The position numbers and the translations under genes were made by a program. Positions 55,478 through 63,668 of a stretch of DNA of 64,000 nucleotides are shown here, piece after piece; the stretch's first letter is position 1, and each line of letters starts with the position of its first letter. The stretch spans positions 25,493 through 89,492 of the forward strand of contig JAVEVO010000003.1 in the NCBI GenBank assembly GCA_034005005.1, written 5' to 3'. The stretch comes from Myxococcota bacterium. GTDB taxonomy: Bacteria > Myxococcota_A > JAVEVO01. Under the pieces are notes generated by a model. That model was given only the letters and a program-made list of their open reading frames with translations, did not search any database and was not told the DNA's origin.

Positions 55478-56073
55478 GCGCGGCGATGCTGACCGAGCCG
55501 GAGCAGGAGGTCCTGCTCCGCTGGGCGCGAGAGGTGCTGGAAGGCCTGCTGCACGAGGGCGAGACGCCCGCGCTGGAGGGGCGGCGCTTTCCGCCGGCGC
55601 TGGTGCAGCCTGCTGGTGCTTTCGTCACCCTGCACCTCGGCGGCGAGCTGCGGGGCTGCATCGGCACCTTCTCCGCGGACCGCCCCCTGGTGGAGATCGT
55701 GCGGGAGATGGCCGTCGCCGCGGCGACCCAGGACCCCCGCTTCCGTCCCGTCCCCCGGGGGGAGCTGCCCCTGATCCAGCTCGAGATCTCGGTCCTCTCC
55801 CCCCGCTGGCCGAGCCGGGACCCCCTCGCCGAGCTCGAGATCGGCGTGCACGGGATCTACCTGACCCGGGGGTGGCACCGCGGCGTGCTGCTGCCCCAGG
55901 TCGCGTCCGAGCAGGGCTGGGATGCCGAGACCTTCCTCGCCCACACCTGCCGCAAGGCCGGGCTCGACGACGAGCAGGCCTGGCGCGCGCCCGACACCCG
56001 CATCGAGCTGTTCACCGCCCAGGTCTTCGGCGAGCCCGCGCGGCCGGACCCGGCCGGAGGAGGGGCGGTGTGA
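55474..56073 (+). CDS. AMMECR1 domain protein
   Basis: ATGA overlap with the NUDIX gene. Conserved LRGCIGTF and [12 protein letters not shown] motifs. Confidence 0.75.
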
Positions 56074-59000
56074 CGTCGCCGACGAGCTGCCGGCCCCGTG
56101 GGTTGCGCTGGTCAGGGGGATGGACCGGCGGGCTGCTGCTGCTCGGAGTGCTGGTCGCGTGCTCCCCGGCGGCGCGGGAGCGAGACGCCGGTCCCGAGAC
56201 GCCCCCGGATGCCAGCGTCGACGCCGGGCCGGAGGACGCCGGGCCGGAGGACCTGGGGCTGGGGCCCGATGGCTGCCGGCCGGTCGCCGAGCGCTGCAAC
56301 GGGCTCGACGACGATTGCGACGGCTACACCGACGAGGACTTCCTGCTGGCGCGCGACCCCCAGCACTGTGGCGCGTGCGACCACCGCTGCCAGTACGGCA
56401 ACGGCGCGGGGGGCTGCCGGGACTCCCTCTGCTACCTCGCCCGCTGCACCCCCGGCTACGCGAACCTCGACGGCCGGGAGGACAACGGCTGCGAGAGCCG
56501 CTGCACCCTCTCCAACGGCGGCATCGAGATCTGCGACGGTCAGGACAACGACTGCAACGGCCTCGTCGACGACGGCTACGACCTCGTCGGTGATCCGGCC
56601 AACTGCGGCGAGTGCGGCCACCGCTGCAGCCTGCGTCATGCGGAGGCGGTCTGTCGGGGCGGCGAGTGCCGGATCGGCCGCTGCGATCCGAGCTGGTACG
56701 ACGAGGACGACGACCCCCTGACCGGCTGCGAGGCCACCTGCGCGCAGAGCAACGGGGGCGTGGAGGGCTGCGACGGGGAGGACAACGACTGCGACGGCCG
56801 GACCGACGAGGACTTCGATCTCCGGGACGATCCGGAGCACTGCGGCCGCTGCGGGCGGGTCTGCAGCTTCCCCAACGCCGTCCCCCGCTGCCTCGAGGGG
56901 GAGTGCGTCATCGATCGCTGCCTCGAGGGCTGGTCCGACGACGGCGTGCCCGAGGACGGGTGCGAGACCCCCTGCGTGCTCTCCAACGGCGGCGTCGAGA
57001 TCTGCGACGACCGGGACAACGACTGCGACGGGACCACCGACGACGGCTTCGACCTCGCGACCAACGTCGACCACTGCGGCCAGTGCGGGCGGGAGTGCCG
57101 GATCCCCAACGGGGTCGCGGTCTGCGTCGACTCCGAGTGCCTCGTGGGGACCTGCGAGGCCGGGTACATCGACGGGGACGGGCGCTACGACAACGGCTGC
57201 GAGACCCCCTGCGTGCCGGACGTCGACCCCTACGAGCTCTGCGACGGCCGGGACAACGACTGCGACGGCCAGACCGACGAGCTGTACGACCTGCAGCAGG
57301 ACCCGCTGCACTGCGGGGGGTGCGAGCGACCGTGCCGGTTCGCCAACGCGGTCGCGGGGTGCCGTCTCGGGGGGTGCGTCATCGAGCGCTGCGAGGAGGG
57401 CTTCGCCGACATCGATCGGCGGCGTGACAACGGCTGCGAGGCCCTCTGTCAGGTCACCAACGGGGGCCTCGAAGGCTGCGACGAGGTCGACAACGACTGC
57501 AACGGCATCGTCGACGACGGCTACGACCTCAACCGGGATCCCGACAACTGCGGCCAGTGCGACCGGGTCTGCCCCGCGGTGCCCCGGGCGACGCGCGCCT
57601 GCCTCGGGGGCGAGTGCGCGGTGGGCGAGTGCGCGGCCGGGTGGGTCGATGCGGACCTGCGGGTCGACACCGGCTGCGAGTACCCGTGCCTGCCGACCAA
57701 CGACGGGGTCGAGATCTGCGACGAGCGGGACAACGACTGCGACGGGACCGTCGACGAGGGCTTCGACAAGCAGCACGGCCTCGAGCACTGCGGCGGCTGC
57801 GATCGGCCCTGCGCCCCGGCCAACGCCCTGCCCGTGTGCGACGAGGGCGTCTGCCGGATCGCCCAGTGCGACGACGGCTGGTACGACGCGCAAAACGGCG
57901 TCAGCGACGGCTGCGAGCTGGCGTGCCGGGTCAGCGAGGGCGGCATCGAGCTCTGCGACGACCGCGACAACGACTGCAACGGCGTCGTCGACGACGGCTT
58001 CGACAAGCTCACCGACGAGGCGAACTGCGGCGTCTGCGGCAACTCCTGCCTGCAGCCGCACCGCCGCGTCGCGTGCGTCCAGGGGAACTGCCGGCAGTAC
58101 GATTGCATCACCGGCTGGGTCGACCAGAACCAGGACGCCGCGGACGGCTGCGAGTACGCCTGTGTCCTCACGGGCGAGGAGGTCTGCGACTGGCAGGACA
58201 ACGACTGCGACGGCGAGACCGACGAGGGGTTCGACCTGCTCACGAGCCTCGACCACTGCGGGCAGTGCCAGCGGAGCTGCCGCTATCCGAGCACGGTCAC
58301 CCGGTGCCAGGAGGGCCAGTGCCTCGTGCTCGGCTGCGAGCCCGGCTTCTGGAACGCGGACCGCCGGCTCGCCAACGGGTGCGAGTACTTCTGCGGGGTC
58401 AGCGAGGGGGGCGAGGAGATCTGCGACGGCCGGGACAACGACTGCAACGGCACCATCGACGACGGCTTCGACCTGCAGAACGATCCCCGCAACTGCGGGC
58501 AGTGCGGGCGCCGGTGCGATCTCGCCGGGGCCACCGCGTTCTGCCTGGCCGGGGAGTGCGCGGTCCAGCGCTGCGACGAGGGCCGGCGGGACGTCAACGA
58601 GGACCCGGCCGATGGCTGCGAGTGCACCCTCACCAACGGCGGGGTCGAGATCTGCGACGGTCGGGACAACGACTGCAGCGGCGTCATCGACGACAACCTC
58701 GGCCTGCCGCCCATCGCCTGCCTGCGCCTCGGCGTCTGCGCCGGGGTCCTGCCCCGTTGCGACGGCCTCGCCGGCTGGACCTGCCCCTATCCGGCGAGCT
58801 ACCAGGCGCAGGAGGCGCGCTGCGACGACCTCGACAACGACTGCGACGGGCAGGTCGACGAGGAGTTCCCAGCCAAGGGGGCGCCCTGCGGCGATGGGGT
58901 CGGGGTCTGTCGGGGCGAGGGTCGGCTGCGCTGCGACGAGCTGACCGAGGACGCGCTCCTCTGTCCCGCCACGGCCCACCCGGAGCGCCAGACCGCCGAG

Positions 59001-62700: not shown

Positions 62701-63668
62701 AGGTCGTCCGAGAAGAACGCGCCGCCCGTGCCGCCCTCGACCGCGAGGTCGTCGAGCAGGGCCGAGCCGTAGGCGTCCTCGCCGAAGCCGACGACGTAGG
62801 TCTTCACCTCGTAGGTCTGCTCCCCGACCGCGATCGTGCGCAGGGCGCGCGCCGCGTCCAGCAGCTTGGCGTCGTCATCGCAGCTATCGTTGGCGTCGTC
62901 GGTCAGCAAGAGCACGCTGTTGTGGCGGCAGGCGCGGCGCACGTCCCCGGCGATGAGCCGGGCGAACTCGTCCCGCGCGGTGCGCAGGCTGGCGCCGATC
63001 TGGGTGTTGCCGTCGCCTCGCAACTCTTTGTTTTCGGGCCAGATCTCGACTCCGTCGATCCAGCGGAAGACGGTCGCCGCGGCGTCCGGGCCGAAGGGGA
63101 CCAGCAGCTCGCCCTGGATGCCGGTGCAGTAGTTGGCGCCGATGTAGTTGATCACCGAGGGCACCAGCCGATCGCAGCCCATCCCGGCCGGGCTCCCCGG
63201 GTAGCGCTCGTCCGCCGCGAACCAGCGCACAGGGTGGTAGTTGGAGCGGCTGTTGATGCCCTCCGCGTCGTTCTGCGGGAAACGGATCAGGGCGAAGTCG
63301 AGCTCGGAGGTGCCCGCGAGCATCTGCCGCAGGGCCGTCTTGGCCTGGTACAGGCGGCTGTCGTCGGTCTGCCCGTTGGCGTCGAGGTCCAGCCCCGGGT
63401 GGTCCGCGGAGCCGTCCCCGCAGGTGACGTTGGGATCGCAGCGTCGCTCCTCGCTGCCGGCCACCGCGGCGCAGCGGCCGCTGTCGCACTCGGCGTCCTG
63501 AGTGCAGAGGCGGGAGCGTGGCCCCCACGTCATGCTGCCCGAGGTGTCGAAGATGATCAGCATCCGCGAGAGCACCTCCTCGGTCCAGCCCGCCCGGGGG
63601 GCGACCAGCAGCCCCAGGAGGGTGAGGAGCAGGAGGGAGCGAAGGGCTCGTCGGTTCCGCATGCACAC
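59718..63668 (-). CDS. giant secreted protein: N-terminal vWA domain, ~20 MopE-type Cys-rich repeats, Cys-rich EGF-like stalk and MYXO-CTERM sorting signal
   Basis: Signal peptide, vWA (MLIIFDTSGSM). Repeats of CDGxDNDCDGxTDE alternate with CxxxCGxGxxxC. The C-terminus (GGGGWSCQTVGGGPPAGAWLIPLIGLLLRWRRRG) fits the MYXO-CTERM pattern. Confidence 0.8.
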   Translation of the reverse strand: MCMRNRRALRSLLLLTLLGLLVAPRAGWTEEVLSRMLIIFDTSGSMTWGPRSRLCTQDAECDSGRCAAVAGSEERRCDPNVTCGDGSADHPGLDLDANGQTDDSRLYQAKTALRQMLAGTSELDFALIRFPQNDAEGINSRSNYHPVRWFAADERYPGSPAGMGCDRLVPSVINYIGANYCTGIQGELLVPFGPDAAATVFRWIDGVEIWPENKELRGDGNTQIGASLRTARDEFARLIAGDVRRACRHNSVLLLTDDANDSCDDDAKLLDAARALRTIAVGEQTYEVKTYVVGFGEDAYGSALLDDLAVEGGTGGAFFSDDLVGLQVALNRVIQDAIPQETCDGIDNDCDGETDERLVRPCATVCGDGTQACQDGQWGACTAGLPGPEVCDGRDNDCDGQLDEELTRDCGNGCGPGTEICLGGRWQGCSAPVPTPEACNGQDDNCDGATDEGLTEACHTSCGAGQRFCVAGSYGPCSAPQPGPETCDGLDNNCDGATDEGLTQACETACGPGEEECELGAWVRCSAPAPLEEICDGQDNDCDGDTDEGLTRDCTNDCGAGFETCLLGLWGGCTAPPVPREECNGLDDDCDGDTDEGLAQACATLCGAGIKTCQAGNWSLCSARQPIPEECNLADDDCDGKVDEELTRRCDTACGTGSQRCERGAWTPCNAPQPAPETCDGLDSDCDGATDEDLVRLCRTACGVGTESCTLGEWGGCTARLPVDAEECNGVDDDCDGATDEGLARPCRHGCLEGQEICSGGEWLPCDAPPVAAEECDDLDNDCDGATDEDLTRDCSTVCGDGRETCVAGQWVGCPAPQPTAELCNLVDDDCDGETDEGILQPCYTACGRGTQLCVDGELTPCDAPPAVVETCNDQDDNCDGRTDEDVFEPCVTLCGPGLKECRRGSWLPCRSPDATDEECNGLDDDCDGETDEDLRRSCANACDPSAYQLCEGGFWTDCRSSPPFGEEVCDDQDNDCNGQTDEGLVEDCSNDCGPGVRVCAAGVWSACSAPLPSVEVCDGLDNDCDRRIDDEAPCDSGTGCYLGLCLESCRSGECDRGFNCENDFCVPNACVDYECPAGRECVVTRDGPRCVESVPCEPDCPEGTFCDNGTCVEVDCYQTGCPDGEACRDGSCGPDPCGEVTCSAAEYCLAGTCTKTCLGVTCPPGQTCTDGECAPDPCARRRCPAEQVCFDGVCLPDPCLTVRCPTGRTCVDGRCVHDECAALVCPADTRCLANRCVPAAQPTEDLGVPEDLGPPPDLGPEPDAGSPRDLGFEPVPGGGFQGGGGWSCQTVGGGPPAGAWLIPLIGLLLRWRRRG

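Follow-up and report, generated by a model that had tools for sequence, protein, structure and literature searches.

Convergent genes for two cysteine-rich MopE-module proteins in a Myxococcota genome: a candidate pair of lipid-tethered envelope proteins

The locus described here lies in a 64,000-nucleotide stretch of a Myxococcota bacterium contig (GenBank JAVEVO010000003.1, positions 25,493 to 89,492; called the window below, and all coordinates refer to it unless a contig is named), where two long genes for cysteine-rich repeat proteins face each other. Gene B, on the plus strand at 56070..59657, encodes a putative Cys-rich lipoprotein of 1195 amino acids (aa) with 130 cysteines, in which the Pfam families PF11617 and PF03781 are found; the protein is a 100% match to NCBI MDY0058420.1, which is named 'MopE-related protein [Myxococcota bacterium]' and is encoded on a 102-kb contig. 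Gene A, on the minus strand at 59718..63668, encodes 1316 aa with 136 cysteines, laid out as a Sec signal, a vWA head, a repeat stalk and a MYXO-CTERM-like anchor. An ATG two codons downstream, at 63662, is an equally plausible start, and because it was used in the JGI gene call on the sister contig L002 (independently assembled from a different metagenome, reached via the cluster member P0273, and 98.8-99.2% identical over 13.6 kb), A counts 1314 aa there. Neither start variant of A is present as an exact entry in the protein collection we searched, and its closest database relatives are 40-47% identical. An earlier reading made from the letters of the DNA (here the sequence-only reading) had described two convergent open reading frames (ORFs) with a 60-bp gap between their stop codons (59658..59717), and the ORF coordinates agree with it; an intrinsic terminator-like or sigma-70-like promoter site was looked for in this gap and none was found. 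From their predicted signals, domains and relatives, we consider it fairly probable (roughly 0.55) that A and B belong together as a conserved pair of disulfide-rich proteins that are secreted and tethered to the envelope by lipid.

The translation of B opens with a predicted lipoprotein signal peptide (56070..56162, plus strand) that the sequence-only reading had overlooked. Its sequence, RPRGLRW...GGLLLLGVLVAC (RPRGLRW-GGLLLLGVLVA-C), has the n-region, the h-region and the lipobox (L-V-A-C, with Cys31) both on reading and with a regular expression, the pattern applied being [LVI][ASTVI][GAS]C after a positive n-region and a hydrophobic h-region. Homologues of B that are encoded just downstream of A-type genes open in the same way, for example MRFIYLILLVSLVVAC and MKVLTNSFVLFFILGLLSAC. 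The signal is followed by an acidic, Pro/Gly-rich, membrane-proximal linker (56163..56294, PETPPDASVDAGPEDAGPEDLGLGPDG...) that is similar to the linker preceding the anchor of A (EDLGVPEDLGPPPDLGPEPDAG), and then by ten tandem modules of 79 aa or 237 bp (56295..58652), each of which has 10 Cys and consists of the MopE core CDGxDNDCDGxxDE and a second half of the form CGxCxxxC...C...C...C...GCE, with a weak CPL1-like Pfam match. The Cys, Asp and Gly columns of these modules are invariant, and our repeat search recovered them as families D3, D5 and D7, spaced by 231-240 nt and 60-86% identical. An AlphaFold2 (AF2) model of two units reached moderate confidence (predicted local distance difference test, pLDDT, 67) and was too uncertain for a fold search. 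Three shorter MopE-core modules of 56-61 aa come next (58653..59054, with motifs at aa 862, 918 and 979), and the best PF11617 stretch of the protein, aa 975-992, lies there. B ends in an FGE/SUMF-like domain, that is, a domain of the formylglycine-generating enzyme (FGE) type with a C-type-lectin-like fold (59055..59594), and a 20-aa Cys-rich end (59595-59654). The domain had been proposed from the sequence and is borne out by PF03781 (FGE-sulfatase), which matches aa 1030-1170 with E 2e-11 and 44.3 bits (gathering threshold 23.3) over profile positions 87-253 of 255.

Protein A, whose G+C content at third codon positions (GC3) is 0.96, starts with a Sec signal peptide read from the translation (63585..63668, minus strand, MRNRRALRSLLLLTLLGLLVAPRAG). 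The following ~310 aa (62649..63584) were assigned to a vWA domain that has a full metal-ion-dependent adhesion site (MIDAS; DTSGS...T...D) and, after its first strand, a Cys-rich insertion. The A sequence alone stays below the Pfam thresholds (PF00092, 21.7 vs 23.8 bits; VWA_2, PF13519, 14.8 vs 27), and a PDB sequence search with the vWA region of A alone returned noise only. An exhaustive search with the head of A gave 252 representative clusters of relatives, and in a 24-sequence alignment of such heads the MIDAS residues D13, S15, S17, T194 and D230 (D-x-S-x-S...T...D) are invariant; 17 of the 24 members match PF00092, and the profile built from them finds PTMP1 (4e-12), complement factor B (1.5e-9) and the integrin alpha-M I-domain (4.5e-5) in the PDB. 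As judged from this family profile, the head of A is a vWA domain with an intact MIDAS, which confirms what had been suggested for the N-terminus of the minus-strand gene. The stalk is made of fourteen tandem modules of 48 aa or 144 bp with six Cys each (60618..62642), which follow the pattern CDGxDNDCDGxTDEGLxxxCxxxCGxGxxxCxxGxWxxCxAPxPxxE with invariant columns and were recovered both by Tandem Repeats Finder (TRF, period 144) and as repeat families D1, D2, D4 and D8. A 15th MopE core (60564..60617) and about 220 aa of short, ~20-aa Cys-rich repeats (59904..60563, CPxGxxCxxGxCxxDPC...) complete it; the latter region has only a weak FOLN/EGF-like Pfam match (E 0.035), and it is kept in the fused homologues P0125 and P0282 described below. 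A Pro/acidic linker leads to the C-terminal tail (59721..59903 together, GGGGWSCQTVGGGPPAGAWLIPLIGLLLRWRRRG; the tail itself, 59721-59822).

The modules of the two proteins are related through their cores. PF11617 (Cu-binding_MopE) scores 157.9 bits in B (E 6e-47) and 176 bits in A (E 1e-52) against a gathering threshold of 27, with 10 scored stretches in each protein, so that MopE-type modules are present in both genes, as had been claimed. By regular expression there are 13 core motifs in B and 14 in A, where the 15th (CDGLDSDCDG) fails the strict pattern, and the motif is absent elsewhere in the window. The repeat length of ~120-150 bp given earlier for the whole locus holds for A (144 bp) and not for B, the period of which is 237 bp (79 aa), and only the ~18-aa motif core, or ~55-65 nt, is common to A and B. 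An AF2 model of three A units is locally confident (pLDDT 89.7) and globally not (predicted template modelling score, pTM, 0.47), as expected of a string of small independent modules; it is elongated, and each unit has an irregular acidic loop followed by beta-hairpins. A Foldseek search of this model against the PDB gave nothing significant (best E 0.26), and in a PDB sequence search the 79-aa modules of B had no match while the 48-aa modules of A matched only MopE* (E 0.02 over ~55 residues).

MYXO-CTERM is a C-terminal signature with an invariant Cys, a hydrophobic helix and an Arg-rich cluster, and the proteins that carry it are sorted by myxosortase and T2SS, the secretion system of type II (PMC11980579). 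The tail of A ends at the extreme C-terminus with GGGGWSC-QTVGGGPPAGAWLIPLIGLLL-RWRRRG, and has the Cys, the hydrophobic stretch and the Arg cluster in this order; the N-terminal signal peptide that MYXO-CTERM proteins require is also present. The curated model TIGR03901, with a cut-off of 20, matches over model positions 2-33/34 and gives 19.4 bits with the last 70 aa, 19.3 with 45 aa and 16.9 with 284 aa. The sequence-only reading had the gene end in MYXO-CTERM; the tripartite pattern stands and the curated cut-off is narrowly missed. Of the six homologue tails that we scored, five reach 22.4-38.3 bits with TIGR03901 and one clears the older TIGR03382 only; a clear MYXO-CTERM ending is found in 35 of 149 members of the A family. 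Because the score of A is just below the cut-off while the tails of its homologues reach 22-38 bits, 'MYXO-CTERM-like' is the right wording. By analogy with the work on TraA of Myxococcus xanthus (PMC11980579), display of A at the surface is a reasonable inference.

To place the pair among relatives, we scanned species-representative genomes with a 5-sequence alignment as the query, which gave 74 loci, related vWA-domain loci of a Polyangium species among them, and analysed the 52 with a substantial vWA-head match. At 31 of these 52 loci the A-type vWA gene has an FGE-like domain on its own strand within 10 kb, and at none is there one on the opposite strand, so the convergent layout in the window is the exception. 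The FGE-like domain is part of the same ORF in 6 of the 31, immediately downstream in 11 and upstream in 14; in the 11 downstream cases the B frame opens before the A stop codon, and 8 of them have a pattern-matched lipobox at the start. A sequence search with A also returned the fused proteins P0125 (2265 aa) and P0282 (2274 aa), each of which matches the whole of A over its first half (41-42% identity) and the whole of B over its second (43%), and both read through on the DNA of their contigs. The joint is formed by an internal MYXO-CTERM that ends in its Arg cluster and is followed at once by a lipoprotein signal, as in ...GCACDVGADESAPPAWLLVLVWPLW-RGRRR-MRTACKGLILLVFSGC..., and such MYXO-CTERM/Arg/lipobox hairpins occur in 18 of 381 fetched proteins by a strict pattern, which misses P0125; four of ten internal MYXO-CTERM tails exceed the TIGR03901 cut-off. 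That the fusions arose by one inversion between motif cores in inverted orientation was considered and rejected, since the fusions hold a whole A, with its Cys-rich region and tail, and then a whole B. Nor is the hairpin confined to vWA heads: in proteins of 1800-2150 aa (P0072, P0084, P0102, P0313, P0345, P0358, P0365, P0372 and others) it links DUF4114-MopE modules with MopE-FGE or with sialidase-like (PF13088) ones, so tail-to-signal fusion recurs with several partner combinations. A rare internal MYXO-CTERM has been reported in MXAN_5598, where it was read as a two-gene fusion and compared with the overlapping traA and traB genes (PMC11980579), and this sets a precedent both for the fusions seen here and for reading the two proteins as a receptor with its partner. 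The pairing of A with B and the recurrent hairpin extend this configuration, noted once before; we found no description of either in the literature searched.

These features lead us to the following proposal. A would be exported through its Sec signal with the vWA/MIDAS head at the N-terminus, followed by the stalk of fourteen 48-aa six-Cys modules and shorter Cys repeats, the Pro/acidic tether and, last, a MYXO-CTERM signal of degenerate form; on the model of TraA, the single Cys of the tail would be lipidated, the transmembrane/Arg tail would be cut off by myxosortase, and A would be moved to the surface. B would mirror A, with its lipobox anchor at the N-terminus, a Pro/acidic tether, ten 79-aa ten-Cys modules and a distal, apparently non-catalytic FGE-like domain of the SUMF2/PorK kind. 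Each protein would thus have a stiff modular stalk tipped at its far end by a domain, vWA-MIDAS or FGE-like, that binds some ligand, and an anchoring plan with A tethered at its C-terminus and B at its N-terminus is likely. We also regard a functional link between A and B as likely, and the conserved pairing suggests that they would act jointly, and perhaps interact, in adhesion or recognition on the cell surface, as TraA does with TraB; adhesion as the function is a tentative assignment. In the fused relatives, a single Arg cluster could serve both as the cytoplasmic stop of the internal MYXO-CTERM and as the n-region of the lipoprotein signal, and a single polypeptide might be split by myxosortase and signal peptidase II to give, in a 1:1 ratio, two proteins with lipid anchors at opposite ends. 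More speculatively, A and B could be the two subunits of a surface receptor or adhesin, undescribed so far, that occurs widely in Myxococcota and Bradymonadia and is often made as one precursor, of which the window would hold a version split into convergent genes. The recurrent lipobox hairpin and this partner pair would then be the new elements, the internal fusion of MXAN_5598 having been noted already (PMC11980579).

Several observations weigh against the proposed pair of lipid-tethered partners. The tail of A lies under the curated cut-off (19.4 vs 20), has one Cys instead of the generic GCGC signature and has a clearly hydrophobic run of only ~13 aa, and the tail of A in L002 (...WSCRTVARGSTASPWGILLLGLLLALYRRS) scores 12.1 bits, with the Cys, the hydrophobic stretch and RR retained. 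Our view of T2SS genes and of mrtX (NF040593), the myxosortase gene that the host of a MYXO-CTERM protein should carry, is confined to the 64-kb window, and the case for Ca2+ binding by the modules is one of motif chemistry. A and B are convergent in this genome, not co-directional. The closest orthologue of B, P0005 (60% identity), is encoded in a NUDIX-AMMECR1-B block with no A gene nearby, so that B can exist without an adjacent A.

The last two points also bear on the possibility that A and B are unrelated neighbours, independent members of a large 'MopE-related' repertoire of Myxococcota whose adjacency here has no functional meaning. The modules do occur in thousands of proteins (2959 and 2796 matches at E <= 1e-10), where they combine with DUF4114, sialidase-like, PKD, lamin-tail and other domains, and the junction between the two genes differs between strains; nevertheless, the strand bias of the FGE-like domains near A-type genes and the full-length A+B fusions in several lineages make this account improbable. 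A further alternative builds on the sequence-only reading, which took the shared repeats for a hotspot of recombination or copy-number change: homologous recombination, inversion or repeat-number variation at this site would diversify the surface proteins. The locus is indeed repetitive at the DNA level, as that reading held: it has 1226 direct and 816 inverted shared 11-mer pairs, where seven control stretches of the same size in the window have 91-694 and 71-239, TRF and the repeat search recover the arrays, and the best inverted match between the motif cores of A and B is 91% identical over 55 nt. However, the repeats cover ~4.8 of 7.6 kb and not the ~7.5 kb estimated before, the units are only 60-74% identical, and the longest exact matches are 26 bp in the B array, 31 bp in the A array and 30 bp inverted between the genes. 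In the one strain available for comparing repeat numbers, L002, no unit is gained or lost and neither array has an indel, and B is 1195 aa in both strains. The last 200 nt of the two genes carry 45 and 35 mismatches against L002, compared with 0-7 per 200 nt elsewhere, arrays included. The variable spot between the strains is the convergent junction, not the repeats, and we consider repeat-driven variation highly improbable; divergent coding repeats of the kind found in A and B are stable between close strains. Another JGI contig, L001, was set aside as evidence on copy number: its final 130 bp (L001:7661-7790) are unrelated to the window although the 2 kb before them match window 61984-64000 at 99.8% identity, so it is probably a chimera that breaks in the 48-aa array. 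This chimera yielded a falsely short 568-aa protein in the database, P0001.

Two further alternatives concern the biochemistry of the proteins. B could be an active, copper- or iron-dependent enzyme of the FGE/SUMF1 type that modifies cysteines of A or of a sulfatase, given its membership in PF03781, the NCBI names of its homologues ('SUMF1/EgtB/PvdO family nonheme iron enzyme'), the conserved adjacency to the very Cys-rich protein A, and a sulfatase-superfamily gene that lies between A and B in L002. The best solved relative of the terminal domain of B is, however, SUMF2/pFGE (E 7e-7 with the single sequence), and a 14-sequence family profile favours the inactive SUMF2 (9e-20) far over SUMF1 (3e-11), with the PorK/GldK lipoproteins at 6e-7. 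In the alignment of this profile to SUMF1, C336 lies in an insertion that is deleted from the B family and C341 is aligned to Ala; these are, in human numbering, the catalytic cysteines of FGE, and this catalytic pair is not present in the B domain. The conserved Cys of the B family aligns with SUMF1 C346, and the Pfam match is limited to the profile positions given above. Because the catalytic pair is missing and SUMF2 is closest, we read the domain as a binding domain. The L002 protein was considered as an FGE substrate and rejected, because it is a multi-spanning membrane protein, resembling LtaS/EptA-type transferases, that lacks the CxPxR target motif, and because B lacks the catalytic cysteines. 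An enzymatic role for B is accordingly unlikely. We give a similarly low likelihood to the idea that the arrays are chiefly devices for binding or sequestering metals (Cu as in MopE, or Ca2+ or other cations) and not stalks for adhesive heads. The Pfam label 'Cu-binding_MopE / putative metal-binding motif' and the 28 acidic, Cys-flanked loops across A and B would fit such a role, as would the stabilization of MopE* by Ca2+ (PMC3423442). Yet the Cu(I) site of MopE* is made by His132, His203 and kynurenine-130, far from the motif, and the N-terminal 46 residues of MopE* are invisible in the crystal (PMC3423442). The PF11617 motif falls within these 46 residues, and since it is away from the Cu(I) ligands and in an unseen region, the Pfam name cannot be taken as a sign that copper is bound. 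That the Cys counts are even and high fits disulfides rather than free thiols, and the conserved terminal vWA and FGE-like domains point to a displayed binding function. Under the preferred reading of the modules as stalks, Ca2+ is probably held by the acidic CDGxDNDCDGxxDE loops, and both these loops and the disulfides would lend the stalks stiffness. Between two Cys lies an invariant Asp/Asn/Glu pattern, which suggests Ca2+ sites by analogy with LDL-receptor class A and thrombospondin type 3 repeats.

The comparison with L002 also shows how the two genes are maintained. B differs by 52 synonymous and 22 non-synonymous codons without indels, and A by 14 synonymous and 18 non-synonymous codons, where 17 of the 18 fall within the final 50 aa (14:1 outside the tail); no Cys of either protein is hit by a non-synonymous change. 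The synonymous excess in B (52:22) and in A outside the tail indicates purifying selection. As a separate observation, A outside its tail differs by ~0.2% between the strains and B by ~1.1%, and the A segment may have been exchanged or moved more recently. The strain-variable segment (~59470-59920) is centred on the gap 59658-59717. In L002, a ~2.5-kb insert lies between A and B (L002:9532-12086, corresponding to window 59647-59738) and encodes the 681-aa multi-spanning membrane protein with a sulfatase-superfamily domain (PF00884) mentioned above, and the divergence at the junction rewrites the anchor tail of A. The diverged 3' ends together with the insert look like cassette exchange.

The genes around the pair were also inspected. 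The window has 72-75% G+C, and GC3 is 0.88-0.96. Upstream of B, the order is a Tad/Flp pilus cluster, a NUDIX gene (identified from the L002 contig) and an AMMECR1 gene, whose TGA stop overlaps the GTG start of B. The Tad/Flp cluster (45530-54935) looks complete and lies directly upstream of the NUDIX-AMMECR1-B block; it includes RcpC/CpaB, a ParA/TadZ-like ATPase, a CpaF-type ATPase (49197-50504), TadB, TadC, a tetratricopeptide repeat (TPR) protein and a TadG-like protein that itself bears a vWA domain (53646-54935). A link to this cluster was considered and is not supported, as the contig L005 has NUDIX-AMMECR1-B without Tad genes. Close to the Tad cluster, 42048-44114 (plus strand) encodes another acidic-repeat secreted protein of ~690 aa that consists almost entirely of thrombospondin type 3, Ca2+-binding repeats (PF02412, E 1.6e-81). 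Further away, an inverted-repeat pair of 186 nt each (4888-5073 and 6288-6473, 99% complementary) encloses 1214 nt and resembles a mobile or invertible element, although a transposase domain was looked for inside it and none was found. A 97% identical copy of this repeat is located at L002:16119-16282, starting ~110 bp upstream of gene A, where L002 ends. At the edge of the element, the ORF 3742-4893 (plus strand) has a MYXO-CTERM-like ending (GAWGCASLGGGLVLLGLFLARPRPAASRR), for which TIGR03901 gave no score. Two long ORFs within the pair had been called antisense artefacts of the repeats. One, 60015..63737, is truly antisense to A, whereas 59386..62586 is on the same minus strand in another frame. 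Shadow ORFs are also found outside the repeats, for example 53085..55040 (651 aa), and we attribute them to the high G+C and GC3 of the window, not to the repeats.

By itself, the locus is one ordinary case among the many uncharacterised 'MopE-related' surface proteins that Myxococcota encode, and B was already annotated as such. What the analysis adds is the link between A and B, which rests on their same-strand recurrence and on their repeated fusion through the tail-to-signal hairpin. From this link follows the hypothesis, open to test, that A and B make up a surface device of two subunits, like TraA/TraB. The fusions are a natural set of substrates with which to ask if a single polypeptide can be turned by myxosortase and the lipoprotein pathway into two anchored proteins. 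Two annotations are also corrected: the motif should not be called 'copper-binding', nor the FGE-like end of B a 'nonheme iron enzyme'.

Each part of the pair can be compared with known systems. MopE and CorA, copper-binding proteins of methanotrophs from which PF11617 derives, are secreted or surface-associated (PMC3423442, PMC3912023) and have the short CDGxDxxCDG motif in common with A and B, but MopE has one motif where A and B have 13-15 in tandem modules, and the beta-sheet body of MopE is missing in A and B. SUMF2/pFGE, the best match to the terminal domain of B, likewise lacks the catalytic cysteines, and PorK/GldK are, like B, lipoproteins with an FGE-like fold; unlike these, B has the domain as the tip of a ~900-aa Cys-rich stalk and has no link to sulfatase maturation or type IX secretion. 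CglB, TadG and PilY1 resemble A in having a surface vWA domain with a MIDAS. The CglB model (NF033757), however, scores 14.6 bits on A against a cut-off of 200, and A has no pilin-like or Tad N-terminus. The closest parallel in overall plan is TraA, the outer-membrane exchange receptor of Myxococcus xanthus, which is found on the cell surface and has an N-terminal recognition head, a Cys-rich stalk and a MYXO-CTERM anchor, and whose partner TraB is encoded by a downstream ORF overlapping traA (PMC11980579). The head of A is vWA where that of TraA is PA14, the stalk of A is built of PF11617-type modules, and neither the TraA model (NF033759) nor other curated Cys-repeat models gave anything above noise on A. 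B is a putative lipoprotein with its own stalk and an FGE-like head, whereas TraB is a beta-barrel/OmpA protein; A and B are convergent in the window, and a role in membrane exchange is not implied. What the two pairs have in common is the plan of head, stalk and anchor in A and a partner that, in the relatives, is encoded immediately downstream or fused.

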